The notes under the pieces are model-generated. The model was not told the origin of the DNA and made no database searches. It saw nothing but the letters and a program-made list of their open reading frames with translations. From contig CACFFJ010000003.1 in assembly GCA_902565645.1 (NCBI GenBank), positions 41,969-105,968 on the forward strand: a stretch of 64,000 nt of DNA, read 5' to 3'. The position numbers were made by a program, and so were the translations under genes. Shown piece after piece: positions 24,256-53,704 of the stretch; position 1 is the stretch's first letter; each line of letters begins with the position of its first letter. The stretch is from an uncultured Candidatus Actinomarina sp. (GTDB taxonomy: Bacteria > Actinomycetota > Acidimicrobiia > Actinomarinales > Actinomarinaceae).

Positions 24256-25098
24256 TTAAATTTTTGATTTATCTTTAAATTTTAAATTTGGATTTTTTGT
24301 TAACCTTTGTTTTGCCCATCTTGCTGGCGCTATTAACTTAAAAAATGGTGGAAGAAATGGTCTTATTATTTTCAACATTTTTAAGTTAAATCCTAAAACT
24401 ATATTTTTTAACTTTGATTGTTTAACTTCGTAAAGAGTTTTAAATTCTTCAGGTAGGGTCTGAAATGCAGTGAAAGCTATAAATGGCCATATTGGTTTAA
24501 TATGTAATGGGACAGGACCTCCTTTTATTATTTCTTCTACATCTTTTGCAACGTCAGTTTTTAATAGGTAATCTTTTTCTCTGGATTTTTTAACTATCCA
24601 CTCTTTAAGTTCTATATGTGTTTGTGGCATTAACTTTCTATCAATAAGTACTAACTCTGCAGCAACCATGTTCTCTTTATGGTATTGGTTTTTCTCTACT
24701 TCAGTAAGTTTTCTAACTGTTTTCTCATAAAAATATATTGAAGAGACTTGCAGGCAAGCATGGACCCATAAAAGCTGTTCTTGGTCTAAAGCGTCATATA
24801 TACCACCAGTTACTTCATCCTTGCCCTTTATTACCTCATGTAATTTATTAATTCTGATTGCACTTTCATCAGCCTCTTTTTTTGTACCAAAAGTAACTGA
24901 ATTTTGTAATGATAAGGTTCTAATTAATCGTTTCCAAGGATCCCTCTGGTAAAAAGATGTTTGCCTTGCTCCAGCAGCTATCAATGGATGAGCAGCGTGC
25001 ATTAATAACGCCCTAGCACCCCCAAAAAGAACTGTTATCTCTTTGTTAACTTCCCACATCATTGATTTTGGACCAAAATATCCTGGATCTCCTTGCAT
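24256..25098 (-). CDS. MpaB/DUF2236-family oxygenase-like protein
   Basis: 280 aa. YFGPKSMMWEVNKEITVLFGGARALLMHAAHPLIAAG...RDPWKRLIRT matches my memory of the DUF2236 N-terminal pattern. Confidence 0.65.
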   Translation of the reverse strand: MQGDPGYFGPKSMMWEVNKEITVLFGGARALLMHAAHPLIAAGARQTSFYQRDPWKRLIRTLSLQNSVTFGTKKEADESAIRINKLHEVIKGKDEVTGGIYDALDQEQLLWVHACLQVSSIYFYEKTVRKLTEVEKNQYHKENMVAAELVLIDRKLMPQTHIELKEWIVKKSREKDYLLKTDVAKDVEEIIKGGPVPLHIKPIWPFIAFTAFQTLPEEFKTLYEVKQSKLKNIVLGFNLKMLKIIRPFLPPFFKLIAPARWAKQRLTKNPNLKFKDKSKI

Positions 25099-36265: not shown

Positions 36266-37947
36266 CAGTATTAGCAACAGCAGGACATGTAGACCACGGT
36301 AAGTCTACATTTGTAAGTTTTCTTACAAGTCAAGAAACTGACAGATTGCCTGAAGAAAAAAATAGAGGTCTTACAATTAATCTTGGATATACATTTTTCA
36401 ACCACAAAAACCAAACTTATTCAATTGTCGATGTACCTGGTCATAGTGATTTTTTCAAAAATACCATGTCAGGATTTTCAAATGCTGATTTAATTCTATT
36501 TATAATTGATGCAAGTCAGGGCTGGTCTGCACAATCTGAACAACATTTCAATGCTTTAACTGAACTCGGTAAAAAAAATTTTATATTTGTATATACGAAA
36601 ACTGACTTGATTAATTCACCAATAGACACTGATGATTTGGACGAAAGATTAAAGAAAATAGATAATTTAAACTATACAGTAATTAAATTCAGCATTAAGG
36701 ACTCAAATAAAAATGAGTTGGTTGAACAAATTGTCAGTTTTATTAAATCATGTAATTTCAAAAATAAAATTTCATCTATGTGGATTGATAGGTCTTTCTC
36801 TCTTGAAGGAGTCGGTACAGTAATAACTGGTACTGCAAGTTCTTCATTTAAAACAGATAATATATATTATCCAATAGAGAATGCAAAATTAGAGATCAAA
36901 GAAATACAGAACATAAATAAATCTTATATCAAAAGTATTAATTCAAAAAGAATTGCTTTATCCCTGAAAAAAAGCAACAAAAATATACCGAAAAGAGGTG
37001 ACTTAATATCAAATAGAAATATTGAATTTACTAATTTAATATTTGTCAAATTCAATAAGGAGCTAGGAAATAAAAATTTTACAAAAGGAACCAAAAGATT
37101 GTTTATTGGAACAACAAGTATATTAATAAAGAATATTTGGGGTATAAAATCTAAAAAATTTCAATACGGTTTGATAGAGTTAAAAAAAGAAATGCCTTTC
37201 CTTAAAAAGGAAAATTTTGTAATCCAAAATACTGAAAATAATTTATTCCTAGGTGGCAAATTTTATTTCTTTATTAATAATCAATCTCTAAAAAAGAAGG
37301 TGATTAATTCATCTAAAAACAAAATCGTAATCAATTCTTTGTTTGAGTTATTCAATGCCTTAGAAAAAGATTTCACAGAAAAAGATGAAGCAACCTTTGA
37401 GATAAATAACTGGAGAATTAAAGAAGAACTCAAAGATGAGATTGAAAAAGACATCAAAGAAAACTATAAAAAAATTAATAAATCAGGTTTCGAAAATTAT
37501 ATGGGTAATAAGTATTTTTTAGATAGTAACTTATTAGAAAAACTGGTGGAAAGTTTAGGAGACCTACAACTAATAAATGACCAAATAAAGCTCAAAAAGA
37601 ATGAAAAAATGGTTGATATAGAAATATATGAAGAAGTTAAAGAATTACTTGGACCATCGTTAGATGTTAATGAAATTAGTTTACATAAATATGATAAAGA
37701 GAAAATTAAATCCTTATTTATTAATGAAAGGATTTATAGGATTAGCAAAAATTTAATAATTACTGATTTTCACTTTAATCAAATACTTGAAACACTGAAA
37801 TCGCTACCTGTCGAATTCAGTGTTTCAGATTTTAAAGAAAAAACAAAATTATCTAGAAAGTACACAATACCAATTTTGGAATTATTAGACAAAAAATTAA
37901 TCACAGCAAAGATAGACGGGGGAGGAAAGAGAAAGAAATTACTCTGA
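36262..37947 (+). CDS. selB: selenocysteine-specific translation elongation factor
   Basis: 561 aa with G1 TAGHVDHGKST, G3 DVPGH and G4 TKTD. It has the short EF-Tu-like domains II/III and a long Lys-rich C-terminal extension, as expected for SECIS-binding winged helices. Confidence 0.8.
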   Translation: MTVLATAGHVDHGKSTFVSFLTSQETDRLPEEKNRGLTINLGYTFFNHKNQTYSIVDVPGHSDFFKNTMSGFSNADLILFIIDASQGWSAQSEQHFNALTELGKKNFIFVYTKTDLINSPIDTDDLDERLKKIDNLNYTVIKFSIKDSNKNELVEQIVSFIKSCNFKNKISSMWIDRSFSLEGVGTVITGTASSSFKTDNIYYPIENAKLEIKEIQNINKSYIKSINSKRIALSLKKSNKNIPKRGDLISNRNIEFTNLIFVKFNKELGNKNFTKGTKRLFIGTTSILIKNIWGIKSKKFQYGLIELKKEMPFLKKENFVIQNTENNLFLGGKFYFFINNQSLKKKVINSSKNKIVINSLFELFNALEKDFTEKDEATFEINNWRIKEELKDEIEKDIKENYKKINKSGFENYMGNKYFLDSNLLEKLVESLGDLQLINDQIKLKKNEKMVDIEIYEEVKELLGPSLDVNEISLHKYDKEKIKSLFINERIYRISKNLIITDFHFNQILETLKSLPVEFSVSDFKEKTKLSRKYTIPILELLDKKLITAKIDGGGKRKKLL

Positions 37948-41401: not shown

Positions 41402-41683
41402 TTATTTCTTTGGGATCCTTGCTACTTTAAGTAAATTTCCATTTTCATCAATTAGTCCAGCCCTTTTTGATAGCATTTTTGGGTTAAATGAAAATAAATT
41501 TCTTTTCCAGGTTGCAATATATCCATAACCTCCAACTACATCTAATTTATTTAATGCTTCTTCAAGCTCAGCAGTTGACGCAGCTACAGCAATTGGTAAA
41601 TCATCTTGATATATAGCATCCCACTCTTCTGAGTCTTTTACTTTTCCTGAATTAAAAAGTAAGTTAATTATGTCTTCAGTCAT
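41402..41683 (-). CDS. hypothetical protein translationally coupled to ptsH
   Basis: 93 aa and soluble, with no motif I recognise. The start overlaps the ptsH stop (ATGACTGA). Confidence 0.5.
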   Translation of the reverse strand: MTEDIINLLFNSGKVKDSEEWDAIYQDDLPIAVAASTAELEEALNKLDVVGGYGYIATWKRNLFSFNPKMLSKRAGLIDENGNLLKVARIPKK

Positions 41684-41936
41684 CTTTAGTAATTAACTCT
41701 TCAAACTTTAACATATAGTCATCTTCATTTTCTCCATTCAGAGTTAAATCAAATGAAGTATCTTTTTTAATACCAAGTTTTAAAATGCCTATCATGCTCT
41801 TGCCGTCAACTTCCTGATCGTTATAGGAAATAGTTACTTCTCCATTAAATTCTTGAGCTATCTTAACAAATTCTGCAGCTGGTCTTGCATGCAGCCCAAC
41901 TGATGATCTAATTGTTAAGTTTTTTGAAATTGACAT
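41676..41936 (-). CDS. ptsH: phosphocarrier protein HPr
   Basis: 86 aa with the active-site His in VGLHARPAAEFV. Confidence 0.85.
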   Translation of the reverse strand: MSISKNLTIRSSVGLHARPAAEFVKIAQEFNGEVTISYNDQEVDGKSMIGILKLGIKKDTSFDLTLNGENEDDYMLKFEELITKDD

Positions 41937-41940
41937 CTAA

Positions 41941-43014
41941 TTATTTTAACTTACTTGTATAAAATTCCAAATCACTATCAACTTGCCAATACGTAAGAAG
42001 GAATTCTTCCAATCCATTTTCAAATAATTTTTTAAACTCTCTAAATCCATCAACATTTTCGTAATTAAAATTCTGTAATAAATGAAATACTTCCTGAAAG
42101 GTACCAAAATTTAAATTTTCTTTTAAAAGAAAATAAAGTGGTCCGTGAAATCTTTCTGATTTACTAAATTTCAATATGGGGTTTCTTGCAACTCGAATTA
42201 AGCTGTCTTTAATCTCTACCATTGAGAATCTCTCTAAAATTTTTTCTTTATATGTATCTATATTCTTTGTTTCTTTACTAAATGATAAGTATGCATTTCC
42301 AAGTGAGTCTATTGCGTTTTTTGAAAATTCAATACTTTTTTCATCTTCAAATAATTGATGAATAAATTCCTTATCCTTGCTTAAGCCAAAATAAGCTAAC
42401 TGCAAATGCAGACCATTTAATATCCAAAGTTTTTTTGTAAACTCTTTTTCGTAATCACCGTAGCTAACAACTTCTGAAGGTTCCAACGGCGATTTTCCCT
42501 TATCCTCTAATATTATTGATCCATATTCTTCAACTGTTACATCAATTGAATCATGTAATTGCGGAGGTACTATTTTATCTACTACTGCATCAATAACATT
42601 TAAATTATCAATCTCAATTTTTGCTTCCTTATAAGAAGAGGAAGATGCTCTATATTTATTCTCAAAAGCAATAAAATCAACTTTTTTCTCTAATTTAGCT
42701 GAAGATATTTTCTCTAAAACATTTACTAGATGATCAGGCCCGACAGATGTTGTTATTAAGTCAGCCTTTTCTAAAGCTGATTTCAATTCATCCCGATTAT
42801 CAAGTTCAATTGCAGAAAAATTTGAAACTGAAATATGATCTGAAGTCTGTTTTGAAAAGTTTGAAACAATATAGCTATCAATTAAATTTAATTTTGATAC
42901 TAATTCATTATCTACATCTACAAAAATAATGTTATATTTATTTTCCTCAAGGACGGGAGCAATAAATCCTCGGCCTATATTTCCTGCTCCAAAGTGTACT
43001 GCTAGTTTACTCAT
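41941..43014 (-). CDS. mtlD: mannitol-1-phosphate 5-dehydrogenase
   Basis: 357 aa with an N-terminal AVHFGAGNIGRGFI. Length fits the MtlD family. It lies in the mannitol PTS context. Confidence 0.85.
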   Translation of the reverse strand: MSKLAVHFGAGNIGRGFIAPVLEENKYNIIFVDVDNELVSKLNLIDSYIVSNFSKQTSDHISVSNFSAIELDNRDELKSALEKADLITTSVGPDHLVNVLEKISSAKLEKKVDFIAFENKYRASSSSYKEAKIEIDNLNVIDAVVDKIVPPQLHDSIDVTVEEYGSIILEDKGKSPLEPSEVVSYGDYEKEFTKKLWILNGLHLQLAYFGLSKDKEFIHQLFEDEKSIEFSKNAIDSLGNAYLSFSKETKNIDTYKEKILERFSMVEIKDSLIRVARNPILKFSKSERFHGPLYFLLKENLNFGTFQEVFHLLQNFNYENVDGFREFKKLFENGLEEFLLTYWQVDSDLEFYTSKLK

Positions 43015-43439
43015 TAGCTAAAAAGTTCATAGATCTTATCTGCAGAATCTAATTTCCAAATTTTCTTTGCATCTTCAGGGTCTTCTATCAAATCTGCAAG
43101 TTTACTTAAAACATCCATGTGTTCATCATCTTTAGCTGCAATACCAACAATTATATATGCTACCTCACCGTTCCATTCAACACCTTTATGGGATTGAATA
43201 ATTGATATCCCAGTTTCATTGATATACTTTTTACCTTCTTCCATGCCATGAGGAATGGCTACCCCATTGCCTATATAAGTTGCAAAACCTTCTTTTTCTA
43301 ATTTTTCAAGCATTGAGTCAATATACTCTTCTTGAATATTTCCACTTTTAATTAATAAGCTTCCCGCAAGTTTCGTTGCTTCTTCCTTGCTTGAAAGCTC
43401 TTGTGAGACAGCAATTGCTGATTTTTTGAGAATTTCCAT
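43014..43439 (-). CDS. PTS EIIA component, mannitol/fructose type (EIIA-2)
   Basis: 141 aa with the phosphorylatable His in GNGVAIPHG. Confidence 0.85.
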   Translation of the reverse strand: MEILKKSAIAVSQELSSKEEATKLAGSLLIKSGNIQEEYIDSMLEKLEKEGFATYIGNGVAIPHGMEEGKKYINETGISIIQSHKGVEWNGEVAYIIVGIAAKDDEHMDVLSKLADLIEDPEDAKKIWKLDSADKIYELFS

Positions 43440-43442
43440 TAC

Positions 43443-43766
43443 TTAAGCTGAATGAATATCATTTCCTTTTGATAAGTCATCAACTAATTTATTTATTGCT
43501 GGATCATTCATAAACATATTAAACGTAACCACAACAGAATTTTCAGCTACCTCTCTTGCTCTGCCAGAAAGACCTTTGTGGGCTACTACAACGTCTGCAT
43601 CTGCTGGTATTAAGTTCACCGGAGAATGCTCAACATCAATCTCTAATCCTGCTTTAGCTAATTTTTTAATTAAGCCATTCTTAACCATTAAGCTTGAACC
43701 CATTCCTGCTTCACAAGCTAAAACGATTTTCTTTACTTCACTTGTAGGTATTGAATCTTTGCTCAT
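43443..43766 (-). CDS. PTS EIIB component, mannitol type
   Basis: 107 aa with the active Cys in IVLACEAGMGSSLM. A good SD (GAGGAG) lies upstream. Confidence 0.8.
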   Translation of the reverse strand: MSKDSIPTSEVKKIVLACEAGMGSSLMVKNGLIKKLAKAGLEIDVEHSPVNLIPADADVVVAHKGLSGRAREVAENSVVVTFNMFMNDPAINKLVDDLSKGNDIHSA

Positions 43767-43790
43767 AATTTTCTCCTCTTTCTATATATT

Positions 43791-43825
43791 ATATAAAAAG
43801 TTTGGGGAGGTAAAACCTCCCCAAA
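43791..43825 (-). terminator. rho-independent-terminator-like hairpin between the EIIC and EIIB genes
   Basis: Minus-strand RNA: UUUGGGGAGG-UUUUA-CCUCCCCAAA (10-bp perfect stem) followed by CUUUUUAUAU. It lies in the 81-nt spacer after the EIIC stop. Confidence 0.6.
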
Positions 43826-43847
43826 CAACATTTTAGCTTAAAGAAAC

Positions 43848-44909
43848 TTAAGCAGTTGGAACGTTGACATCAATTGTGTCTTCGACTCCAGCATCAGTTT
43901 CTGTTATTGGTCTTGCTCTTAGGATAATAGTACCTACGACTGCAGCAGCTACTGCTCCAATCAATACACCACCTAATACAGCAAAGTGTCCACCCTTAGG
44001 TGTGACAGCTAAGTATGCAAAAATACTTCCTGGTGAAGGTGTTGCCACCAAACCAGCTCCAGTAATCTGGAACCAAAGGTCAGCACAAATTCCACCTGCC
44101 CACATACTTAGGATCATAATTGGATGTCCTAATACATATGGGAAGTAAATTTCATGAATTCCTCCGAAGAAGTGAATGATAATGGAACCTGGAGCTGATT
44201 GCTTCCACATTCCAGTACCTGCAAACCAATAAGCAAGCAACAAACCTAGACCTGGTCCAGGATTTGTTTCAAGCAAAAACCAGATGGATTGACCAGTTTC
44301 AGCAGCTTCAGCTGCACCAAGTGGTCCTAATACACCGTGGTTGATTGCATTATTTAAAAATAGTACTTTGGCAACTTCAATAGGAATGTCTGCAAGAGGT
44401 ACTAGACCTGCGTCTACTAATGCACCAGCTGCATTTCCTAAGAAATCGGTTATTCCTTGCAGAATTGGACCGATTACGTTCTTGCTTACTACAGCAAGAA
44501 TTGTTCCAAGGATACCAAGTGAGAAGTTGTCAACCAACATCTCAAAGCCTTCTGGAGTTGCAGGTTGCAAAGCTCCGTCAACTTTCTTTTGTACCCATGC
44601 TGCCAAAGGACCCATGGCCATAGCTCCTAAGAATTGAGGAGTAGTTGATCCTACAACAATAGCTGTAGTTACAACTGCACCAATTACACCACCTCTGTGT
44701 CCATGAACCATTTTTCCACCTGTATAACCAATAAGTATTGGTAACAAGCTCACGATCATTGGACCTACCATTTCAGACAGACCTTCGTTAGGTACCCATC
44801 CTGTTGGTATAAAGAGAGCTGTAATCAAACCCCAAGCGATGAAAGCACCGATGTTAGGAATAACCATTCCTGCCATAGCACCACCAACGCGTTGTATGGA
44901 TTCTTTCAT
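43848..44909 (-). CDS. mtlA: PTS EIIC component, mannitol-specific
   Basis: 353 aa and polytopic. MKESIQRVGGAMAGMVIPNIGAFIAWG matches the MtlA EIIC N-terminus. It has no fused B/A domains. Confidence 0.9.
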   Translation of the reverse strand: MKESIQRVGGAMAGMVIPNIGAFIAWGLITALFIPTGWVPNEGLSEMVGPMIVSLLPILIGYTGGKMVHGHRGGVIGAVVTTAIVVGSTTPQFLGAMAMGPLAAWVQKKVDGALQPATPEGFEMLVDNFSLGILGTILAVVSKNVIGPILQGITDFLGNAAGALVDAGLVPLADIPIEVAKVLFLNNAINHGVLGPLGAAEAAETGQSIWFLLETNPGPGLGLLLAYWFAGTGMWKQSAPGSIIIHFFGGIHEIYFPYVLGHPIMILSMWAGGICADLWFQITGAGLVATPSPGSIFAYLAVTPKGGHFAVLGGVLIGAVAAAVVGTIILRARPITETDAGVEDTIDVNVPTA

Positions 44910-45075: not shown

Positions 45076-45492
45076 TTGATTAAACTAATGAAATTAATGA
45101 ATTTTTTAAAAAATGCAATAATTATAGGCTTTCTTGTTACGCTTTTAATAGCGATATCTTTTGGAGCAACAAATTCATTAGTTACTAACGCATCCAAACC
45201 CATTACTAATGCTATTACAGGATCTTTTAAGGTTTCTCCATCAGAAGAATTGTTTACTGATGAAACAATTCAAGTAACTATTGAAAGAAAGAAAAAAGAA
45301 GGAGCTGAGCAATTAATTAGTGATTGCTTAAATTATTATTCAGAAGAGTATCCGGAATATAAAAATATAACATGCAACTTGATTATTAAAACAAATCTAC
45401 TTATCGATAATAGTTGTCAATATATAGTTGGAGTCCTAAAAGAAGAAAATGGAAAAAATACAATTAGCTTAAATATAGATCCTGAGTGTTAA
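45076..45492 (+). CDS. N-terminally anchored or secreted hypothetical protein
   Basis: 138 aa with an N-terminal TM/signal segment. No motif recognised. Confidence 0.45.
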   Translation: MIKLMKLMNFLKNAIIIGFLVTLLIAISFGATNSLVTNASKPITNAITGSFKVSPSEELFTDETIQVTIERKKKEGAEQLISDCLNYYSEEYPEYKNITCNLIIKTNLLIDNSCQYIVGVLKEENGKNTISLNIDPEC

Positions 45493-45499
45493 CTTTAAG

Positions 45500-45778
45500 C
45501 TAATCAAAGATAGAGCCTAAAAGGCTGTCTTCTTCTGTTTCTATCTCTGCTAAAGTATCTCCAACACTTATAACAGAACCTTCTTCAGCATTTAATTTAA
45601 TTATTTTCCCTGTAAATGGAGAGTCCAAGTCCATATCAACTTTATCAGTTGATATCTCTGCAACAATATCTCCTTTGCTTACCTCTGAACCTTCCGAAAT
45701 CTTCCATTTCAATAGCTCAGCTTCTGTCATTTGATCAGACATTGCAGGTAGAATAATTTTTTCCTTACCCATTTTCAA
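45500..45778 (-). CDS. stand-alone lipoyl-attachment domain protein (E2 lipoyl domain only)
   Basis: 92 aa with the lipoyl-lysine motif EISTDKVDMDL. It ends in an acidic linker-like tail. No acyltransferase catalytic domain follows. Confidence 0.8.
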   Translation of the reverse strand: MKMGKEKIILPAMSDQMTEAELLKWKISEGSEVSKGDIVAEISTDKVDMDLDSPFTGKIIKLNAEEGSVISVGDTLAEIETEEDSLLGSIFD

Positions 45779-46757
45779 CCATTTTAATAATTGAATTAAT
45801 TATGTCTTCTTTTTGTGGTATAACTTTATTCTCTAGATGTTTTGCTGAAGGCATAGGAGAATGCAAACCAGACAATAATCTTGGTTGAGTATTTAGTTTA
45901 GTAAATGCATCTGAAGATACCACTTTTGAAATTACAGTTGTTCCTACTGAACTATCTCCAACCGCCTCCTGGCACACTAATAGTTTTCCAGTTTTTTCAA
46001 CAGAGCTAATTATTAAATCTACATCAAGAGGAGAGAGGGTAAGGAGGTCTATAAGTTCTACTGAATACTTTTCTAGTTTTTTATCGCTAATTGCCTCTTT
46101 TGCGGTGTTTACCATATTTGAATATGAAACAACTGTTATGTCTGAACCTTCCCTAACAATATTTCCTTTCCCTAATAATTCTGAGGTTTTAGGAATGGTA
46201 TTAAGTTGGACATCTTCTTTGATCTTATATATTAATTTATGTTCCATAAATATTATTGGATTTCTATCAACAAAAGAAGCTAATAGCAAATCGTAAGCAT
46301 TCTGTGGGCCTGATGGTGTAACAACTTTTAAACCTGGTACATGACAGAACCAGGACTCCAAAGACTGGCTGTGTTGAGCAGCCGCACCAGTTCCACCTCC
46401 GCTAGCTCCTCTTACAACTATTGGAACATCAATCGTGCCTCCATACATAAAATGTAATTTAGCTGCTTGGTTAACAATGGGATCCATTGCATTAGCTATA
46501 AAATCACTGAATTGCATTTCAACAATTGGTCTTGCACCTGTTATAGCTGCCCCTACTCCAAGTCCTGCTATAGCATCTTCGGATATAGGTGTGTCCTTTA
46601 TTCTATCTTCTCCGTATTTTTCCAATAAACCATCGGTTACCCCAAAAGCACCTCCATATATTCCAATATCTTCACCAGCTAAAAAGGCTTCTTCGTAATT
46701 GTCCAAACATAAAGAAATAGCCGACTTAATAGCTTGGCCGGTAGTCATTTCAGGCAT
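45765..46757 (-). CDS. TPP-dependent 2-oxoacid/acetoin dehydrogenase E1 component, beta subunit
   Basis: Homology starts at MPEMTTGQAIKSAISL..., then DTPISEDAIAGLGVGAA and HSQSLESWF. I set the start at the ATG at 46757 (ATGCCTGA overlap with the alpha stop) rather than the ORF-track start at 46850. Confidence 0.85.
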   Translation of the reverse strand: MPEMTTGQAIKSAISLCLDNYEEAFLAGEDIGIYGGAFGVTDGLLEKYGEDRIKDTPISEDAIAGLGVGAAITGARPIVEMQFSDFIANAMDPIVNQAAKLHFMYGGTIDVPIVVRGASGGGTGAAAQHSQSLESWFCHVPGLKVVTPSGPQNAYDLLLASFVDRNPIIFMEHKLIYKIKEDVQLNTIPKTSELLGKGNIVREGSDITVVSYSNMVNTAKEAISDKKLEKYSVELIDLLTLSPLDVDLIISSVEKTGKLLVCQEAVGDSSVGTTVISKVVSSDAFTKLNTQPRLLSGLHSPMPSAKHLENKVIPQKEDIINSIIKMVENG

Positions 46758-47709
46758 ATGAATCCTCTTCCAAATTTGTTTGAGAGCTTTCTGGGGACTG
46801 AAGAGCTTTTTTAACCGAAGATTTAATCTCATCTTTAACCTCAGATTCAATCTTTTCTAAATCAGTTTTTTTAATATTCTCTTCCAGTAATTTACTAGTA
46901 AATCTAATCAAAGGATCTTTTTCTTCTTTCCAAAAATTAATTTCATCATCTGTTCTGTATAAATTCCTATCAGATTTTGAGTGACCCCTGTATCTGTAGG
47001 TAACACATTCAATAAATCGAGGTTTGCAATTTGATATTATCTCTTTTTTATTAGTTAAAACAGATTGATAAACAGCTTCGACATCATTTCCATCAATAGA
47101 GCTGCTTTCAATTCCATATGATTCAGCTCTCTTGACGATCGATCCTCCTGCAATGGCATTTTTAGATGCCATTGACATTCCATATTGATTGTTTTCGCAT
47201 AAGAACAATACAGGTAGTTGCCATAATGATGCTAAATTTAATGCTTCATGAAAAGACCCTTCATTTACTGCTCCATCTCCAAAAAAACATAGCACTATGT
47301 TGTCTTTTTTTTGCATCTTTAGTGACTGAGCTGCTCCTACCGCAATTGTTAAGCTCCCAGCAACAACTCCATTAGCTCCAAGGTTGCCATTAGAAAGATC
47401 TGCAATATGCATTGATCCACCTCTTCCTCTGCAATAACCATCTTCTCTACCAAGAAGTTCTGCAAACATCCGGAAAGGTTCTGCTCCTTTTGCTAAGCAG
47501 TGACCATGCCCTCTATGGGTTGAGGTTATTAAATCTTCTTTATCTAGAGCTAAGCATGCGCCCGTTGCTGTTGCCTCTTGACCAATAGATAGATGCATTG
47601 TGCCATGTAAAATGCCTCTGGAAAACATTTCTTCTAAAGATTCTTCAAATAATCGAATGAGTAGCATCATTCTAAAAAGTTCTAATTTTCTATTTTTATC
47701 CAGATCCAT
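46750..47709 (-). CDS. TPP-dependent 2-oxoacid/acetoin dehydrogenase E1 component, alpha subunit
   Basis: 319 aa with HLSIGQEA, STHRGHGH and the TPP motif FFGDGAVNEGSFHEALN...LCENNQYGMS. Confidence 0.85.
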   Translation of the reverse strand: MDLDKNRKLELFRMMLLIRLFEESLEEMFSRGILHGTMHLSIGQEATATGACLALDKEDLITSTHRGHGHCLAKGAEPFRMFAELLGREDGYCRGRGGSMHIADLSNGNLGANGVVAGSLTIAVGAAQSLKMQKKDNIVLCFFGDGAVNEGSFHEALNLASLWQLPVLFLCENNQYGMSMASKNAIAGGSIVKRAESYGIESSSIDGNDVEAVYQSVLTNKKEIISNCKPRFIECVTYRYRGHSKSDRNLYRTDDEINFWKEEKDPLIRFTSKLLEENIKKTDLEKIESEVKDEIKSSVKKALQSPESSQTNLEEDSYA

Positions 47710-47713
47710 ATCT

Positions 47714-48964
47714 TTAGTTTTTTTGCTTTTTTCTTAAATCATTAATTAAATTATCAGGAAGTTCAATACTGTCGATTGATATAGGGTCACCTTCTTTAAT
47801 TGGTTTTGTAATCTCTCCTCCTTCAAGCAAGCCTAATGGGACTAAACCATCAGCATCAGATAAAGGATATGCTACACCGTAAGATGAAAACCCTCCTATT
47901 CCGTCAACAGTTTCTCCTGGTTCTAAATCTTTTTTGGCATGTCCAACTACTTCTGAAATCCAGGTTTTAGGTTGTAATCCAGATTCGTTATTTATAATAG
48001 CCATACCCACACTCCTTGGAGCCTCAACGGAAGCAAGGTGATAAGGCCTATATAGTGTGTAGTAAGGGCCTTCTCCCATTGAAAGGTACTCCATTTCTTC
48101 AATAACAGTTTGACTATCACTTTTAACAATAGAGAAAACACCCGGTGCAGGCCCAAATGCAAAGTCAACTCTGCCTGATTCACTAAGTACTCCTCCATCT
48201 TCTTTTGGGATTAATGTTTTGTTTAAGTCTTGCACTTCACTTACAGGACCATTCATTCCTACTTTATCTAAAGGAAGACCTATTCCGTTCGAAAGGGATG
48301 TCATTTCAATCATTGTCTTACTACCATCAACAAAACTTGCTAACATCTTTGGATTCATTTTTTTCTTTTTTGCCTCACTACTTAAAGAATCTGGTGTTGC
48401 TTTTTGATCCAAAGGATTATTCTTTCCCTTTCCAACACAAACAACTTCAAAGCCTGTATCAATAGAAAAATCATAGAGCTCTTTACATACAACTGGCTCA
48501 TCACCATTGGCCACACTATATATAACATTTTTCTCTTTTGATAATTGTGTTAAATATAATCCCACTGTTACGTCTGTTTCAACATTAAGCATCAATACAT
48601 GCTTGCCAGCTGTTAGACAAGAATATGCAACCTCTGCCCCAACCCAGGGCACTCCTGTAGCCTCATAGACTATATCTATTGGGAGCTCAGCCAAAGCATT
48701 GACATCTGATACCACTCCACCATTTCCTTTTTCAATTGAAGAGCTTGCTTCATTGTCGTAACCAATAGAATTCATTCCAGATAAAGTTAGTGCTTTCTCT
48801 GCTCTGTTTTTATCAATGTCTGCACAAGCAACCAAATCCATTCCTTGAATTTTTCCTATTTGTGCAGCTAAACCAGTACCCATTTGACCAGCGCCTACTA
48901 AACCAACCCTTACAGGTCTACCTAAATCTTTCTCTCTTTCAAGTAATGCTTCTGTTAAATTCAT
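47714..48964 (-). CDS. NAD(P)-dependent oxidoreductase with a C-terminal SAF-like domain (homoserine-dehydrogenase-like fold family)
   Basis: 416 aa with the Rossmann motif RVGLVGAGQMGTGL. The C-terminal ...GEITKPIKEGDPISIDSIELP is a SAF-like beta-clip. It resembles proteins commonly annotated as predicted homoserine dehydrogenase / SAF domain oxidoreductase. Confidence 0.65.
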   Translation of the reverse strand: MNLTEALLEREKDLGRPVRVGLVGAGQMGTGLAAQIGKIQGMDLVACADIDKNRAEKALTLSGMNSIGYDNEASSSIEKGNGGVVSDVNALAELPIDIVYEATGVPWVGAEVAYSCLTAGKHVLMLNVETDVTVGLYLTQLSKEKNVIYSVANGDEPVVCKELYDFSIDTGFEVVCVGKGKNNPLDQKATPDSLSSEAKKKKMNPKMLASFVDGSKTMIEMTSLSNGIGLPLDKVGMNGPVSEVQDLNKTLIPKEDGGVLSESGRVDFAFGPAPGVFSIVKSDSQTVIEEMEYLSMGEGPYYTLYRPYHLASVEAPRSVGMAIINNESGLQPKTWISEVVGHAKKDLEPGETVDGIGGFSSYGVAYPLSDADGLVPLGLLEGGEITKPIKEGDPISIDSIELPDNLINDLRKKQKN

Positions 48965-49320
48965 TAGAAAATATTTATTGTGTCGCCCAAAACTATTTCA
49001 GGTATTTTTGAATATGAACAACTAACGTCTCCTGGTAAAGCAGCTTCTTGAGCCGAGTCTAGTTTTAACACAAGGTGGCCAAGATTTTTAAAATTTTCAT
49101 TTGCTACTTCACCAATTGCTGTGACTTTTAAAGTTTCTCCTGATAACTCGATTGTTGTACCAACAACAATCTCACCATTAACAGGGTTAAGTTTATGAAC
49201 AACTGCAACATCCTGTAATTCTTCAGGTGCATTATCTCCAAAAAAAACAACTATACCTTCTGCCAAAAAAAGCCCTGATTGTTCCCCTAATCTAACTATT
49301 TTGGAGGAATATATTGACAT
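48964..49320 (-). CDS. srlB: PTS EIIA component, glucitol/sorbitol family
   Basis: 118 aa. ...VTAIGEVANENFKNLGHLVLKLD...PGDV parallels E. coli SrlB as I recall it (VTAVGSVAEDNLRELGHVTLRFDG...PGTV). Confidence 0.8.
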   Translation of the reverse strand: MSIYSSKIVRLGEQSGLFLAEGIVVFFGDNAPEELQDVAVVHKLNPVNGEIVVGTTIELSGETLKVTAIGEVANENFKNLGHLVLKLDSAQEAALPGDVSCSYSKIPEIVLGDTINIF

Positions 49321-49698
49321 TTAGGCTTCTGTTATTTGATCCTCAGAAACTCCTGATACGAAATTCTCTTCTTTAATAAATTGTGCAAGAGGGCCAGCAG
49401 GTGTGGTGTCATGTATGTCAATTGTTGGAACTCCCTTCATTGGATAAACACCAATTCTTGCAGTTCCTCCACAGTCAATGACTGCGCAAGCCATTGCTTT
49501 AAAACTTCCTTCTGGTGATGATTTAAAACCATCAAATGCTTCTGCCCCAGTCATGTCAGCAATTTTTTGTGCTACTGGGTGAATCCCTCCACCAGTAATG
49601 CATACAATATATTTTTTTTCAGCATCAGGTGCTACCTCTAAAGGGCCACCCCAGCCACTTGGGCCGGCTTCTACTTTTACTTTTTTATACTCTGCCAT
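49321..49698 (-). CDS. PTS EIIB domain, glucitol/sorbitol family (equivalent to the SrlE N-terminal domain) as a separate protein
   Basis: 125 aa with SGWGGPLEV, YIVCITGGG, VIDCGGTARIGVYP and GPLAQFI, matching the SrlE N-domain as recalled. An SD (AAGGAG) lies upstream. Confidence 0.8.
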   Translation of the reverse strand: MAEYKKVKVEAGPSGWGGPLEVAPDAEKKYIVCITGGGIHPVAQKIADMTGAEAFDGFKSSPEGSFKAMACAVIDCGGTARIGVYPMKGVPTIDIHDTTPAGPLAQFIKEENFVSGVSEDQITEA

Positions 49699-49714
49699 TT
49701 TGCTCCTTAAATAT

Positions 49715-49748
49715 TTGTAACGCTCTGATTTTACACAGAGCGTTACAA
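49715..49748 (-). promoter_or_regulatory. perfect 13-bp-stem intercistronic hairpin between the EIIC-half and EIIB genes
   Basis: ttgtaacgctctg-attttaca-cagagcgttacaa. On the minus-strand RNA it is followed by AUAUUUAAGGAGCAAAAUG, so the U tract is weak and the hairpin sits immediately before the SD. Confidence 0.5.
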
Positions 49749-49771
49749 TTTATAAAATTGTTTAACTAAAT

Positions 49772-50296
49772 TTACAAACCTAGTGCAAACAAATAACCAA
49801 CAACGACTGATATTGGTCCAGTTATCATTCTACTTGTAAGAACTGCTGGAACTCCAACCTCTACAGTCTCAGGTTCGGCTTCACCTAAAGCTAAGCCAAC
49901 GGGAACGAAATCGCACCCAACCTGGGGGTTAATTGCAAACAATGCAGGTAGTGCCATAGAAACATCAATATTTCCACGACCAATTTCTGTACCAACTAAG
50001 ACTCCAACAATTTGTGCTATAACAGCACCGGGTCCTAATAGTGGTGACAGAATAGGTATTGCACAAATGATACATACGATCATTAGTCCACCTAAGCTAC
50101 TTGCAAACCCTTTTATACCATTAGCGATAAGATCGCCAACACCTGTTTCTAATATTAATCCAATAACAAAAGTCACAAATGCCATAAAAGGAATGATTGT
50201 CTTAAGACATAGATCAACAGCGTCTCGACCTGCTTGAAACAATGTTCCAACAACTCCACCTACTGACCTACCTATACGTTCTATTAAAGCTTGCAT
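49772..50296 (-). CDS. PTS EIIC membrane domain, glucitol/sorbitol family (equivalent to the SrlE C-terminal half)
   Basis: LFQAGRDAVDLCLKTIIPFMAF, LSPLLGPGAVIAQIVGVL and ALFAINPQVGCDFVPVGL parallel the SrlE C-half. I set the start at the ATG at 50296 (TAATG overlap with the srlA stop), not the ORF-track start at 50326. Confidence 0.8.
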   Translation of the reverse strand: MQALIERIGRSVGGVVGTLFQAGRDAVDLCLKTIIPFMAFVTFVIGLILETGVGDLIANGIKGFASSLGGLMIVCIICAIPILSPLLGPGAVIAQIVGVLVGTEIGRGNIDVSMALPALFAINPQVGCDFVPVGLALGEAEPETVEVGVPAVLTSRMITGPISVVVGYLFALGL

Positions 50297-50841
50297 TATG
50301 CTGCACCTCCTTGGCGTGATTTCCACATCATGCTAAAGATAATGTCTGTCACAATACCTCTGATCAAGATAACAACTAAGCCTGCAAGAAGGTATCTCAC
50401 TGCTAAAGCTGTCACCATGTCTGGTGCAACCATTTCAACGCCAGCCGCAATTCCAAGCCAGACAAATAATTCACCACCGTTTGCATGTGGGAATATTCCT
50501 GTGATTGGATGCACAAAGCTAACAGCTGCATCATAGAACGCTGGTTTGTTTTTTTCTGGTAAGAATGTACCAAATGTATAGCAAACAGGGTTAGTAAGCA
50601 TAAATACTGCTACAAAAGCTAGCAAGGTATATCGGACTGGAACATACATCCATCCTTCTTGCGATGCCCATTTAGCAAAGCCTTCAACCCTTTCTTCACC
50701 TATGAATTTAACGACAGCATTAACTGCTGTTAAAAACACAACTACAATTGGGATAATACCTGTGGTGAACCCTACAAAAACATCTGCAGCGGTTCTAAAC
50801 ACTTGTATAAACGCTTCGGCACCAGCCACTAAAGCATCCAT
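50296..50841 (-). CDS. srlA: PTS EIIC component, glucitol/sorbitol family (SrlA-like)
   Basis: 181 aa. FLPEKNKPAFYDAA...GIFPHANGGELFVWLGIAAG parallels E. coli SrlA (FMPEKYKPSYYAAA...[20 protein letters not shown], as recalled). Confidence 0.85.
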   Translation of the reverse strand: MDALVAGAEAFIQVFRTAADVFVGFTTGIIPIVVVFLTAVNAVVKFIGEERVEGFAKWASQEGWMYVPVRYTLLAFVAVFMLTNPVCYTFGTFLPEKNKPAFYDAAVSFVHPITGIFPHANGGELFVWLGIAAGVEMVAPDMVTALAVRYLLAGLVVILIRGIVTDIIFSMMWKSRQGGAA

Positions 50842-50855
50842 AGTTTATCCTTTCT

Positions 50856-51236
50856 CTATTTTGCTGAACTACTCTGTTTCTCGCTATTAATCTTTTTAAT
50901 TAAAGCATCAGCAGCCATTTTTGCTGCTTCATAGAGTGGTTCTTCTTTATCTGAATCTTTTATTTCAGATAAAGTTTTTCCAATAATTGTTGATTCTTTT
51001 TTACCTTTAGCAAAGACAGTTGTCCCCTCTAAGGTAACTGCATCAATGATTACGGAATTAAAATTGGCAGATACTGCTACATAAACTTTTTTTCTGCCCC
51101 ATTTTGGTTGATTTACACCTATAGCAACAATTAATCCAGGACCCTTAAGCTCATTAACAATGTTTAAGAAGCTGGTTGCTTGTGCTTTTGCCATCCGCAT
51201 TTGAAGCACCCACATAAATGCGAGTCCTAAAAACAA
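50856..51236 (-). CDS. gutM: GutM-like glucitol operon activator
   Basis: 126 aa with an N-terminal TM helix, then ...RKKVYVAVSANFNSVIIDAVTLEGTTVFAKGK, similar to the E. coli GutM core (RVVVAIALDDQQRIVDTLFMKGLTVFARPQ, as recalled). The start (TTG 51236 or ATG 51215) is uncertain. Confidence 0.65.
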   Translation of the reverse strand: MFLGLAFMWVLQMRMAKAQATSFLNIVNELKGPGLIVAIGVNQPKWGRKKVYVAVSANFNSVIIDAVTLEGTTVFAKGKKESTIIGKTLSEIKDSDKEEPLYEAAKMAADALIKKINSEKQSSSAK

Positions 51237-51392
51237 GGCTCCTAAGGCATATGGTGAACTAAATATCTTGTTCTCCCCCCAACAACAAAATGTTATTTAA
51301 TATAATTCTACAAACTTCAAGTAGCCCAAGTCGAGGTATTCCAGAAAAAATAAATACTCTAAGTAACTATTTGTTGATATTTTGGTAGAAAA

Positions 51393-52076
51393 TTAATCTT
51401 CTAATAGCTTCTCTAACTGAAAAACATCTTCCACAAAGGTAACTTTCATATTTCTTGGATCTCCAGGAATAACCATTGCTTCCATTCCTGAATATTTTGA
51501 TACACATTCTGTAGTATCAACAGCTTGCCAATTGTCTAGTTTTGCTAACTCATATGATTTCCATAGCTCACTTGCTGGAAAGACTTGTGGGGTTTGTATT
51601 TCAACAATTGTTTCAATATCAACACTAGACGACTTCTCTTTTTTACTTAGATTCTTGGAGTTGAAACCAGGAGCAGCTGCACCATACTTATTAGCAACAT
51701 TTATTAATTCATTAAGAAGATAATCAGGCAGAAGTGGTCTTGCTCCATCATGAATTAAAATCAAATCTTCTTCTTCAACTTTTTTAGAATCTTTTAGATA
51801 CTTCAAGCCCTCATACTCGCTTTCATGTCTTGAGTTTCCTCCAACAACTACACCTATTAATTTTTTTGGATCAATAAGTTCAATTACGTTATTTGTTTTG
51901 TCCCAATCTTCCTCTCTTATTACAAGAATAATTGAATCAACTAATTCTGATTTTTCCAAAGTTTCAAGAGGCCAACATAAAGCTGGTTTTCTACCAATAG
52001 GAAAATAAACTTTGTTTTCTTCATCTGAAAATCTGTTACTAGATCCGCCAGCTAATAGGATTGCGTGGGTTTTCAT
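51393..52076 (-). CDS. IspD/TarI-family sugar-alcohol-phosphate cytidylyltransferase
   Basis: 227 aa with ILLAGGSSNRF, IHDGARPL and IQTPQVF. I cannot separate IspD (MEP) from ribitol-5-P or another CDP-alditol enzyme by eye. There is an ATGA overlap with ptsI. Confidence 0.8.
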   Translation of the reverse strand: MKTHAILLAGGSSNRFSDEENKVYFPIGRKPALCWPLETLEKSELVDSIILVIREEDWDKTNNVIELIDPKKLIGVVVGGNSRHESEYEGLKYLKDSKKVEEEDLILIHDGARPLLPDYLLNELINVANKYGAAAPGFNSKNLSKKEKSSSVDIETIVEIQTPQVFPASELWKSYELAKLDNWQAVDTTECVSKYSGMEAMVIPGDPRNMKVTFVEDVFQLEKLLED

Positions 52077-53704
52077 AAATTTATTTTATCTAATTTATCT
52101 CTAACTTCACCAGCACTCTGAGAAGATAAGATTTCTTTTCTTAGTTCTTCTATATCCATTGATCTAATTTGATTTACTTTCTGAAATACAAAAGGTGCTG
52201 AAGCAGAAGACATACTAAAAACTCTTAATCCTAAAACATATAATACAGCAGCAGATAAAGCATCTGAAGCCATTTCTCCACATACTGAAACCTCAACATT
52301 ATTTTGATTACTTACATGTATCACATTGTCTATAGCTTTTAATACTGCTGGGTGTAAGGGGTCTTGATACTTTATTAGTTCTGGATTCCCTCTGTCTGCA
52401 GCCATAATGTACTGGGTTAAGTCATTTGTACCTATTGAAAAGAAATCAACATACTTACTAAACTCTTCAACTAATAAAGTAGATGCTGGGGTTTCTATCA
52501 TAATCCCTACTTCTGGTTTATTAACTTTTAACTTCTTTGCAATTTTTTCTACAATCAAATTTGATTCGGTAAAGTCTTCAATGGTTGATATCATTGGAAA
52601 CATTATTTTTATCCTCTCAAGGTCTTCTGAAGTTAAAATTGATTCAATTTGGCTTTCCAATAATTCTTTTTTGTCTAGTGAAAGTCTTATGCCTCTCACA
52701 CCAAGAAAGGGGTTTTCTTCTTGGGGTAAATCTAAGTAAGGAACAATTTTATCACCACCAATGTCTAAAGTTCTATAAACAATCTTTCCTGTAAATTTTT
52801 TTTGTATTTTTTCTAGAATTAATTTTTGATCTTCAACTGTTGGCTTATTTTTTCTATCTAAATATATAAATTCTGACCTGAATAATCCTATTGAATCTAG
52901 AAAAGGGTGCTCAAAGTTTTCTATTTCTTCATTTGATCCTATGTTTACTCTAAACTCTAGATCAGAAGACTCGTATAGCTCTTTTGTGAATTTCTCAATT
53001 ATCTCTTTTTGAAGCCTCTTAGTCTCATTAATACTACTAATTTTCTCTTTATTTGGGTTTATATTGACTTCTCCAATTTCTCCATCTATTGCAAGGGTAT
53101 CTTTTTCTTGAATTTCGTGTATTTCTTGACCAAGGCCAATTACGCAAGGTATACCTAAATTTTTTGCAACAATAACAGCATGGGAAGTTGGTCCACCATC
53201 TTTTAAAATAATTCCTTTCACATAAGACATATTCATTGAAGAGGTGTCAGCAGGAGTAAGATCTGAAGCAACTAATATTGAATCTCCTTCTAATGTGTCT
53301 GAATCCTGAATACCTTGCATTGTTTTTATTAAATGCTTACCAACTGATAATATGTCTTCTGCTCTTTGACTAAAATATTCATCATCCATAGCCCCAAGAA
53401 CTTCTGAATTTGATTTAAATACTTCAAAAACATCCTTTATAGAATTTTCTTTTTTCTCATCTATTGAATCAATAATTTCAGGGTCTTGCATGATTAATAT
53501 ATAAGCACCTAATACATCTGCCTCATCATGTCGTTCACTATCTTTAAACTCATCTATCTGTAAAGTAAATTTATCTATAAGCTTTTTTATAGAATCAGTA
53601 AACGAATTCTTTGCTGAGATAGATAAATCAACTTCATTTTCATAAATAAACACTGGCCCAATAGCAGTACCTATGGAGACGCCATTTCCCTTAACAGTTT
53701 TCAT
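52073..53704 (-). CDS. ptsI: phosphoenolpyruvate-protein phosphotransferase (PTS Enzyme I)
   Basis: 543 aa with the active His in GGPTSHAVIVAKNLGIPCV and a C-terminal PEP-utilising TIM-barrel pattern (IGTNDLTQY). Confidence 0.9.
   Translation of the reverse strand: MKTVKGNGVSIGTAIGPVFIYENEVDLSISAKNSFTDSIKKLIDKFTLQIDEFKDSERHDEADVLGAYILIMQDPEIIDSIDEKKENSIKDVFEVFKSNSEVLGAMDDEYFSQRAEDILSVGKHLIKTMQGIQDSDTLEGDSILVASDLTPADTSSMNMSYVKGIILKDGGPTSHAVIVAKNLGIPCVIGLGQEIHEIQEKDTLAIDGEIGEVNINPNKEKISSINETKRLQKEIIEKFTKELYESSDLEFRVNIGSNEEIENFEHPFLDSIGLFRSEFIYLDRKNKPTVEDQKLILEKIQKKFTGKIVYRTLDIGGDKIVPYLDLPQEENPFLGVRGIRLSLDKKELLESQIESILTSEDLERIKIMFPMISTIEDFTESNLIVEKIAKKLKVNKPEVGIMIETPASTLLVEEFSKYVDFFSIGTNDLTQYIMAADRGNPELIKYQDPLHPAVLKAIDNVIHVSNQNNVEVSVCGEMASDALSAAVLYVLGLRVFSMSSASAPFVFQKVNQIRSMDIEELRKEILSSQSAGEVRDKLDKINL

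Follow-up and report, generated by a model that had tools for sequence, protein, structure and literature searches.

The DRL protein of Brucella abortus is a type II DXP reductoisomerase (DXR-II; DXP, 1-deoxy-D-xylulose 5-phosphate) that converts DXP into MEP (2-C-methyl-D-erythritol 4-phosphate), and enzymes of this type are treated as biosynthetic, with their coexistence with DXR-I in Listeria and other Firmicutes left unexplained (PMC3847144). Functional DXR-II has been reported from Chloroflexus, which possesses the mevalonate pathway alone, and from Finegoldia, which possesses neither the MEP nor the mevalonate pathway (PMC3847144), and a 2026 review found no pattern that explains the distribution of the enzyme (PMC13001223). 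Among marine bacteria, a KEGG-based survey credits the Actinomarinales with uptake of mannitol and sorbitol through phosphotransferase systems (PTS) (PMC7771536). The present analysis concerns a 64-kb stretch of DNA from this order (contig CACFFJ010000003.1), hereafter the window, in which nine minus-strand genes within positions 45500-51236 join a glucitol-family PTS to an oxidoreductase, a thiamine pyrophosphate (TPP)-dependent E1 alpha/beta pair and a small lipoyl protein. The oxidoreductase is, judging from its sequence, a member of the DXR-II/DRL family. In general form, the cluster probably converts a phosphorylated polyol into a ketol phosphate by means of DRL, followed by oxidative cleavage by E1/E2; the more specific proposal, that it serves uptake and use of 2-C-methyl-D-erythritol (ME), partly as salvage, is given about even chances. 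The parts belong to known families, their combination is not described in the literature searched, and what they form is likely a novel pathway assembled from enzymes of familiar kinds.

A preliminary description of this DNA had placed a SAF-domain dehydrogenase in the slot that SrlD occupies in sorbitol operons. The domains stood, but the protein is not an anonymous SAF dehydrogenase: in addition to SAF and NAD_binding_3, it matches the DRL family PF21135 with 206.9 bits against a cut-off of 27, aligns with Brucella abortus DRL (PDB 3UPY/3UPL) over residues 11-412 with an E-value of 3.2e-96, and shares about 40% global identity with Brucella DXR-II. In the Brucella enzyme, K191, K193 and T229 anchor fosmidomycin or substrate, while E174, F178, R320 and Y322 form the dimer interface, and DXR-II was set apart from the non-DXR relatives DLO1 and DLO2 (PMC3847144). 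All of these anchoring and dimer residues are conserved in the window DRL (Brucella numbering), within a set comprising G121, D167, E168, E174, F178, K191, K193, N194, D225, K228, T229, E232, R320, Y322 and H323; more distant or DLO-like homologues differ at signature sites (Q168, N/R191 and others). In a neighbour-joining tree of 194 sequences, a rough one built without bootstrap and without the labelled DLO sequences of PMC3847144, the window DRL, all PTS- or E1-linked homologues and Brucella DXR-II form one clade, marked by E168, K191, K193, N194 and T229. Where Rossmann strand beta-2 ends, the window DRL reads 'CADID', with an Asp, against 'LSARRL' ('SARR') in Brucella, and an Asp stands at this position in nearly all cluster-linked DRLs. 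An acidic residue there generally goes with NAD preference, exceptions being known, so the enzyme is predicted to favour NAD over NADP, which would suit an oxidative role. Enzymes of the DXR-II type interconvert MEP and DXP. With the oxidoreductase placed in this family and its diagnostic active-site residues present, MEP is probably oxidised and rearranged to DXP at this step, and ME, rather than a sorbitol-like hexitol, is the probable substrate of the cluster.

The nine genes are co-directional and tightly packed in DNA of about 30% G+C, and the layout and all junctions given in the preliminary description were borne out on the list of open reading frames (ORFs) and on the sequence, while each of its domain calls was matched in Pfam and NCBIfam scans of the window ORFs. 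Intergenic spacers in Actinomarinales have a median of 2-3 bp (PMC7771536), so tight junctions are weak evidence when taken alone, and the argument must rest on other genomes. Gene order is identical in relatives at 74-78% identity, and Tara Oceans metagenome contigs whose DRL protein is 74% identical show the same order, with WhiB nearby. Additionally, the exact window DRL protein occurs in 282 blocks of a public assembly collection and in GCA_902551005.1, an assembly taken here for the genome of a single marine cell; together with the G+C content, these occurrences suit the streamlined marine 'Candidatus Actinomarinales'. Most population variants in the operon are synonymous, and its genes are under purifying selection. 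Because the order is kept in relatives, the exact DRL recurs and the variants are mostly synonymous, the nine-gene layout is not a chance arrangement.

Loci were collected by a scan of one genome per species (GTDB) with an 11-sequence DRL alignment, and 80 loci were kept among the matches listed; close relatives of the window are not among these 80, and because T229 lies within one of the two peptides used for the search, the loci are biased towards the DXR-II signature. The loci were searched by tblastn with the window proteins; naive ORF calling gave antisense artefacts in high-GC loci. Within 10 kb of DRL, a glucitol-family PTS was present in 55 of the 80 loci, E1 alpha/beta in 47, both together in 43 and neither in 21, and the loci with the PTS only (n = 12) are mostly short contigs, two of which begin with an E2 fragment. 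The linkage spans Actinomycetota, Chloroflexota, Spirochaetota, Bacillota and Alphaproteobacteria (five phyla), with carriers including Streptomyces, Nocardia, Amycolatopsis, Mycolicibacterium, Cryobacterium, Klenkia, Rubrobacter, Nanopelagicales, Ktedonobacterales, Caldilineaceae, spirochaetes, Thermovorax and Chelatococcus. The E1ab and lipoyl genes are thus tied to the PTS and the oxidoreductase in many genomes and phyla, so the outcome that would have overturned the preliminary proposal, absence of this linkage from other genomes, did not occur, and this recurrence lends good comparative-genomic support to the import-oxidise-cleave logic that the preliminary description had proposed: its outline of import and phosphorylation, oxidation, and TPP-dependent cleavage onto a lipoyl group holds, with the oxidation now narrowed to a probable MEP to DXP step and the substrate, probably, to ME.

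The composition of the cluster beyond the window is informative in itself. On a Priestia aryabhattai plasmid, E1a-E1b-E2-LpdA is accompanied by a SorC regulator, a major facilitator superfamily (MFS) transporter, a second SorC regulator, DRL and an FGGY kinase. An Agrobacterium tumefaciens plasmid carries a SorC regulator, an ATP-binding cassette (ABC) transporter, a PfkB kinase, DRL, E1a, E1b, E2, LpdA and LipA, and on a Sinorhizobium meliloti Rm41 plasmid a kinase and an ABC transporter are divergent from a SorC regulator, DRL, E1a, E1b, E2, LpdA and LipA. A Terrarubrum plasmid has PTS enzyme I (EI), the gut PTS and GutM divergent from DRL-E1a-E1b and an AcoC-type E2, and an Aminobacter plasmid has DRL-E1a-E1b followed by an acetoin-type E2 (NF011457, 406 bits against a cut-off of 307). 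Identity with the characterised Brucella DXR-II reaches 73-74% in the DRLs of Agrobacterium and Aminobacter, both of which have E1a-E1b-E2 immediately after them; no E1 was found near a DLO-like homologue of Mesorhizobium (36% identity). Thermovorax, Nocardia, Mycolicibacterium, Priestia, Agrobacterium and S. meliloti have a dihydrolipoyl dehydrogenase gene (Lpd, E3) in their clusters, the cluster often includes an IspD homologue, and the cluster kinases are ribulokinase/xylulokinase-like and ribokinase-like. Overall, the core DRL-E1a-E1b-E2(-Lpd-LipA) is combined with three modules, namely a gut-type PTS, an MFS transporter with an FGGY kinase, and an ABC transporter with a PfkB kinase, and such a constant core, with three unrelated modules for uptake and phosphorylation exchanged around it, is typical of catabolic pathways.

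The E1 subunits and the lipoyl protein of the window look functional, since their catalytic motifs and lipoyl-lysine are intact and the genes are under purifying selection. E1 alpha matches TIGR03182 (PDH_E1_alph_y) with 349 bits, just below the cut-off of 394, has human pyruvate dehydrogenase (PDH) E1 alpha as its closest solved structure, and shows in translation the GDG...NN TPP motif and the catalytic His of 'RGHS'. E1 beta, whose closest solved structures are PDH E1 beta subunits, reads with the TPP-activating Glu of 'DTPISE' and the His of 'AAQHSQ'. The lipoyl protein finds its best NCBIfam match in the lipoyl end of the acetoin dehydrogenase E2 (AcoC), its TDK lipoyl-lysine is invariant, and it ends exactly after 'LLGSIFD', a motif that precedes the linker in full-length actinobacterial cluster E2s. 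Neither an E2 catalytic domain nor a dihydrolipoyl dehydrogenase occurs anywhere in the 64-kb window, as previously described. The lone lipoyl carrier of the window represents a truncated E2 of a streamlined marine lineage: in other lineages, wherever the contig extends that far (about 40 loci), E1 beta is followed by a gene for a full E2, which has an acyltransferase core besides its lipoyl and E3-binding domains and is mostly of the classical 2-oxoacid_dh type, and the 90-aa product is restricted to the clade of the window. On these sequences, the dedicated transacetylase appears to have been reduced stepwise in streamlined actinobacteria, with the free-standing carrier as a derived and not an ancestral state, because the E2 is full elsewhere, altered in freshwater acI-like actinobacteria and cut down to the lipoyl domain in the window, and E1 itself is missing in 'Ca. 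Actinomarina'.

The acI-like E2s merit separate mention. In loci L031, L040 and L044, the E2 core is present but shortened to about 350-366 aa, and the DHRxxDG motif reads DLRxxDFYDG, resulting in loss of the catalytic His; these proteins look like an intermediate stage towards a lipoyl-only gene. The idea that the window's lipoyl gene is a decaying remnant was considered and rejected, given that lysine, length and C-terminal motif are conserved between clades. Identity between the two marine clades is 72% for the lipoyl protein, 74% for DRL, 76% for E1 alpha and 70% for E1 beta.

The PTS genes follow the glucitol pattern with modifications. SrlA-type EIIC matches NF049923 with 202 bits against a cut-off of 150. 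SrlE is not one polypeptide: its halves come from separate genes whose order is permuted (268 and 157 bits, each below the whole-protein cut-off of 400), the C-half gene matching positions 157-329 of the SrlE model, and the same split and permuted SrlE is found in many actinobacterial loci. The SrlB-type EIIA and GutM satisfy Pfam and are both below the NCBIfam equivalog cut-offs. In agreement with the preliminary description, no SrlD-type short-chain dehydrogenase/reductase (SDR), GutR or GutQ was detected among the window ORFs scanned with Pfam and NCBIfam, and no partner SDR sorbitol-6-phosphate dehydrogenase (SrlD/GutF) was detected in the operon or among these ORFs. A further component, the IspD homologue upstream of the nine genes, was outside the part covered by the preliminary description and is a recurrent member of the cluster, found no farther than 10 kb from DRL in 41 of the 80 loci (tblastn). 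It matches TIGR00453 with 145 bits against a cut-off of 181, and the ribitol-5-phosphate cytidylyltransferase model with 87 bits. To our knowledge, MEP is the sole metabolite common to DXR-II and IspD.

Two observations concern this gene in other loci. In L031, L040, L044, L065 and similar loci, a PTS-DRL-E1-E2-IspD cluster is situated between carD with a degenerate IspD paralogue on one side and ispF-cysS on the other, and thus inside the canonical actinobacterial carD-ispD-ispF-cysS block; the paralogue is without the N-terminal CTP-binding Gly/Arg motif, and the intact IspD is the cluster copy. Directly after the cluster IspD, 20 loci of Actinomycetota and Chloroflexota encode a protein of about 103 aa that has two CxxC pairs and matches nothing in Pfam (for example, L044 12305-12616 and L022 6044-6355).

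Taken together, these components suggest the following route. The PTS would import ME and release MEP; the sorbitol PTS of Salmonella reportedly transports ME (Testa 2004), and import through the gut PTS is proposed on this basis. IspD may turn part of the MEP into CDP-ME for isoprenoid synthesis, as its family and recurrent co-location suggest. DRL would convert MEP into DXP, the reverse of the biosynthetic reaction; the family of the enzyme is established by its matches, and the direction is argued from pathway logic, in that TPP requires a carbonyl, which DXP has and MEP does not, and DRL stands between a kinase or PTS on one side and E1 on the other, leaving MEP to DXP to E1 as the sole chemically consistent direction. 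DXP, CH3-CO-CHOH-R, is a methyl ketol like acetoin. E1 would attack its C2 carbonyl with TPP and cleave the C2-C3 bond, releasing glyceraldehyde 3-phosphate (GAP), and the resulting hydroxyethyl-TPP would reductively acetylate the lipoyl-lysine, which amounts to DXP synthase (DXS) chemistry run in reverse. Such a cleavage gains support from the acetoin-type E2s in some clusters and the E2, E3 and LipA in others, and from PDH E1 (aceE) mutants that form DXP in vivo (PMC3424233). In most carriers, the cluster contains an E2, sometimes with E3 and LipA, that would hand the acetyl group to coenzyme A (CoA). With neither E2 core nor E3 in the window, acetyl transfer and re-oxidation in this organism would have to draw on an E2 core and an Lpd encoded at other loci, which would discharge the acetyl-lipoyl group and re-oxidise the carrier; this is the weakest step of the scheme. 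The net conversion would be ME to acetyl-CoA and GAP.

Several observations weigh against an ME pathway of this kind. The window DRL carries H250N relative to Brucella, and a subset of actinobacterial cluster DRLs carries T229A. The IspD homologue falls short of the NCBI IspD equivalog cut-off, and IspD is anabolic, an odd fit in a catabolic cluster. DRL also occurs next to the PTS in the absence of cleavage enzymes: Listeria monocytogenes lmo0547-0542 reads SorC-DXR-II-GutM-gut PTS with no E1/E2 within 8 kb, and an Alkalispirochaeta locus (L069) combines PTS and DRL with no E1/E2 within 10 kb. A Ligilactobacillus salivarius plasmid (L092) carries DRL, gut PTS, GutM and SorC followed by fsa and tkt; lactobacilli are not known to use any isoprenoid pathway but the mevalonate one, and the encoded fructose-6-phosphate aldolase and transketolase may offer the DRL product another outlet. 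Homologues with the DXR-II signature are likewise found with ABC transporters, FGGY kinases, Zn-dependent alcohol dehydrogenases and SIS/RpiB/FucI-like isomerases, without E1/E2 (L034, L050, L061, L066, L068, L071, L074, L075, L077, L080, L082), a context that may serve the same substrate, or a related one, by another route. Five 'Ca. Actinomarina' single-cell loci (L057, L059, L062, L072, L076), syntenic with the window in DnaB, EamA, EI, IspD, DRL, mannitol PTS, MtlD and HPr, keep EI-IspD-DRL and are without the gut PTS, E1ab and lipoyl gene, so presence of the module varies between genera of the order. The DXR-I equilibrium favours MEP, and with the equilibrium on that side the reverse DRL direction would need a pull from E1. 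Finally, the literature searched contains no data on ME in seawater.

Among the competing explanations, the one that survives best retains the architecture and changes the polyol. A 1-deoxy- or 6-deoxy-alditol, a tetritol or pentitol, or sorbitol would be oxidised by DRL acting as a plain polyol-phosphate 2-dehydrogenase, and E1/E2 would split the ketose phosphate into an aldose phosphate and an acyl unit, either acetyl or glycolyl. Swappable uptake around the conserved DRL-E1-E2 core backs the architecture and names no substrate, yet an ordinary ketose phosphate such as fructose 6-phosphate, xylulose 5-phosphate or ribulose 5-phosphate needs no dedicated E1/E2 complex, and acetoin-type E2s fit a methyl ketol. 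Similarly, the glucitol family of the PTS components, the sugar-kinase types of the clusters, and the hints of other specificities in the T229A and H250N variants and in fsa/tkt of L. salivarius would be accommodated by another polyol, whereas the close relatives of the Brucella DXP reductoisomerase in the same DRL-E1-E2 arrangement, and IspD, whose substrate is MEP, as a recurrent neighbour, point to ME. Another polyol is rated unlikely, although it is the alternative to be taken most seriously.

Recurrence of the PTS or kinase with DRL, E1 and E2 in large genomes and on accessory plasmids speaks against an explanation in which DRL and IspD do no more than serve the organism's MEP pathway, E1ab acts as its PDH E1 or as an alternative DXP synthase joining pyruvate and GAP, and the PTS adjoins them through genome compactness. 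The lineages of these large-genome and plasmid carriers are assumed ordinarily to have chromosomal PDH and MEP genes. This biosynthetic explanation draws on the 'Ca. Actinomarina' relatives that keep EI-IspD-DRL without PTS or E1, on the acI-like clusters lying between carD with the degenerate ispD and ispF-cysS, on the small meaning of tight junctions where the median spacer is 2-3 bp (PMC7771536), and on the ability of PDH E1 mutants to make DXP (PMC3424233). However, the E2, E3 and LipA of the clusters indicate oxidative acyl transfer and not carboligation, a DXP synthase needs no lipoyl acceptor and yet the lipoyl domain is retained and conserved, and SorC-type sugar-phosphate regulators together with uptake systems are catabolic hallmarks, which leaves a purely biosynthetic cluster improbable. 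Because the 'Ca. Actinomarina' loci retain DRL and IspD without PTS or E1, DRL is probably also the biosynthetic DXR in Actinomarinales, so that the enzyme may be dual-purpose. Least probable is an ordinary sorbitol PTS operon in which DRL is a non-orthologous sorbitol-6-phosphate dehydrogenase beside a decaying, unrelated acetoin or 2-oxoacid dehydrogenase remnant, since the KEGG-based reading of these genes in the order as sorbitol uptake and degradation (PMC7771536), the truncated E2 of the window and the lost catalytic His of some freshwater relatives, which could look like decay, are outweighed by E1/lipoyl linkage conserved across phyla, intact E1 motifs and lipoyl-lysine with mostly synonymous variants, and a lipoyl gene conserved between clades (72%) about as well as its neighbours (70-76%).

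The features of the neighbourhood are compiled in the table.

Table. Features of the nine-gene unit and its flanks in the window, in the direction of transcription
Feature	Position	Strand	Family match or note	Junction with the next gene
PTS enzyme I (PEP-protein phosphotransferase)	52073..53704	-	Pfam PEP-utilizers_C/N + mobile domain	4-nt overlap with IspD start
IspD-like cytidylyltransferase, MEP cytidylyltransferase family	51393..52076	-	Pfam IspD 1.1e-34	
Intergenic region between gutM and the IspD/EI pair, 156 nt	51237..51392	-	largest gap of the neighbourhood	
GutM-like activator	50856..51236	-	Pfam GutM (PF06923) 3.9e-14	14-nt gap
SrlA-type EIIC, glucitol-family PTS (EII-GUT)	50296..50841	-	PF03608 2.1e-65; NF049923	TAATG overlap, ATG at 50296
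SrlE C-terminal (membrane, EIIC2) half, own gene (EIIBC-GUT_C)	49772..50296	-	PF07663 2.1e-45	73-nt spacer with 12-13 bp hairpin
Hairpin/palindrome in the 73-nt spacer	49715..49748	-	fold z-score -5.2	
EIIB domain, SrlE N-terminal half (EIIBC-GUT_N)	49321..49698	-	PF03612 1.7e-51, model positions 1-116	TAAATG
SrlB-type EIIA (PTSIIA_gutA)	48964..49320	-	PF03829 3.9e-31	TAATG
Oxidoreductase of the DXR-II/DRL family (by sequence), 416 aa	47714..48964	-	DRL_cat PF21135 2.6e-61 + SAF + NAD_binding_3	4-nt gap
E1 alpha, PDH/acetoin-dehydrogenase type, TPP-binding (E1_dh)	46750..47709	-	PF00676 7.8e-77	ATGCCTGA overlap
E1 beta (Transket_pyr + Transketolase_C)	45765..46757	-	PF02779 + PF02780	overlap of 8 nt (ATG 45772) or 14 nt (TTG 45778)
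Lipoyl domain protein, 90 aa (Biotin_lipoyl)	45500..45772	-	PF00364 1.8e-18	
Mannitol PTS (EIIC, EIIB, EIIA), MtlD, HPr; separate unit, downstream	41679..44909	-	Pfam	

The EI gene is found in or beside the cluster in many related loci. The region between gutM and IspD is the probable promoter or regulatory region of the nine-gene unit and is partly kept in relatives; a promoter and terminator scan of 41.5-54.5 kb gave counts at or below shuffled expectation and was uninformative, and Rfam revealed no credible family in the operon or leader. The start of GutM is uncertain (TTG 51236 or ATG 51215), gene callers giving 119 aa. Within the operon, the spacer hairpin is a perfect 12-13 bp inverted repeat, TTGTAACGCTCTG-N8-CAGAGCGTTACAA, that occurs once in the window; relatives at 74-75% protein identity keep its arms unchanged and differ in loop and flanks, and the repeat could be an RNA hairpin for processing or stability, or a protein operator. 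Downstream, the mannitol PTS unit, with HPr at 41679-41936 (tblastn), is separated from the nine genes by a convergent plus-strand ORF at 45076-45492, which encodes 138 aa without a Pfam match and ends 7 nt from the lipoyl-gene stop; a 127-aa counterpart stands at the same spot in relatives L001-L004.

Elsewhere in the window, positions 439-28637 form a low-GC block (23-28%) with glycosyltransferases, GDP-mannose dehydratase/epimerases, Wzy-like, asparagine synthase-like and sugar transferase genes and several ORFs without a family, and this block resembles the flexible cell-envelope island fGI1 of Actinomarinales. Additionally, the window encodes SelA and SelB for selenocysteine incorporation (34970-37947), in a very small genome, a protein with an MpaB/Lcp-type oxygenase domain (24256-25098) and a cytochrome P450 (61762-62961).

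If the ME pathway is correct, its consequences would extend beyond this order. It would constitute a new way to catabolise a branched C5 polyol that originates from the MEP pathway in plants, algae and bacteria, and the oxidative cleavage of DXP would be a new reaction of the E1 family. A concrete carbon source would be identified for the abundant, streamlined marine Actinomarinales and freshwater acI-like actinobacteria, whose "sorbitol" PTS has so far been read from KEGG alone, and there the module would have ME salvage, bypassing DXS and DXR, as a second function. Salvage of ME through a PTS might also matter for fosmidomycin-type antibiotics, the Listeria cluster being one place to look. 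A catabolic role would furthermore explain the orphan or redundant DXR-II of Listeria, Chloroflexus and Finegoldia, the coexistence with DXR-I and the patchy distribution of the enzyme. Literature searches on ME catabolism or utilisation, on DXR-II after 2013 and on lmo0546 found no report of a catabolic role of DXR-II. The broadest version, held tentatively and given somewhat less than even chances, is that DXR-II is primarily catabolic, serving as an NAD+-linked MEP dehydrogenase/isomerase in a widespread pathway from ME to acetyl-CoA and GAP, with the biosynthetic DXR-II of Brucella as a secondary recruitment. Carriers that can be cultured include S. meliloti Rm41, A. tumefaciens CFBP7129, Priestia aryabhattai XT37, Streptomyces ipomoeae, Klenkia, Terrarubrum flagellatum and Thermovorax.

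The locus can be compared with five described systems. Like srlAEBD-gutMRQ of E. coli and Salmonella, the window unites homologues of SrlA, SrlE, SrlB and GutM in one operon, whereas SrlD, GutR and GutQ were not detected among the ORFs scanned, SrlE is split and permuted, and the genes after EIIA encode an enzyme of the DXR-II type, E1ab and a lipoyl domain. Listeria lmo0542-lmo0547, which includes a SorC-type regulator, likewise joins a gene of the DXR-II clade, with the same signature residues, to GutM and a glucitol-family PTS; it differs in the absence of E1/E2 and of IspD nearby. Acetoin dehydrogenase (AcoA/AcoB/AcoC/AcoL) shares with the window a heterodimeric TPP-dependent E1 and a lipoyl acceptor, along with the proposed cleavage of a methyl ketol, and some cluster E2s elsewhere are genuinely of the AcoC type; by contrast, the substrate proposed here is a phosphorylated C5 ketol, DXP, yielding GAP, and the window is without the E2 catalytic domain and E3. 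DXS and the DXP-forming PDH E1 variants resemble the proposed reaction in the TPP-bound hydroxyethyl intermediate and in GAP and DXP as reactants, while here the direction would be cleavage, the hydroxyethyl group would be oxidised onto lipoate, and the E1ab family is distantly related to DXS. Finally, Brucella abortus DXR-II (3UPL/3UPY) is the same three-domain protein as the window DRL, with the same anchoring and dimer residues and in the same tree clade, but the window enzyme is embedded in a transport and E1/E2 cluster, where it is proposed to convert MEP to DXP rather than DXP to MEP.

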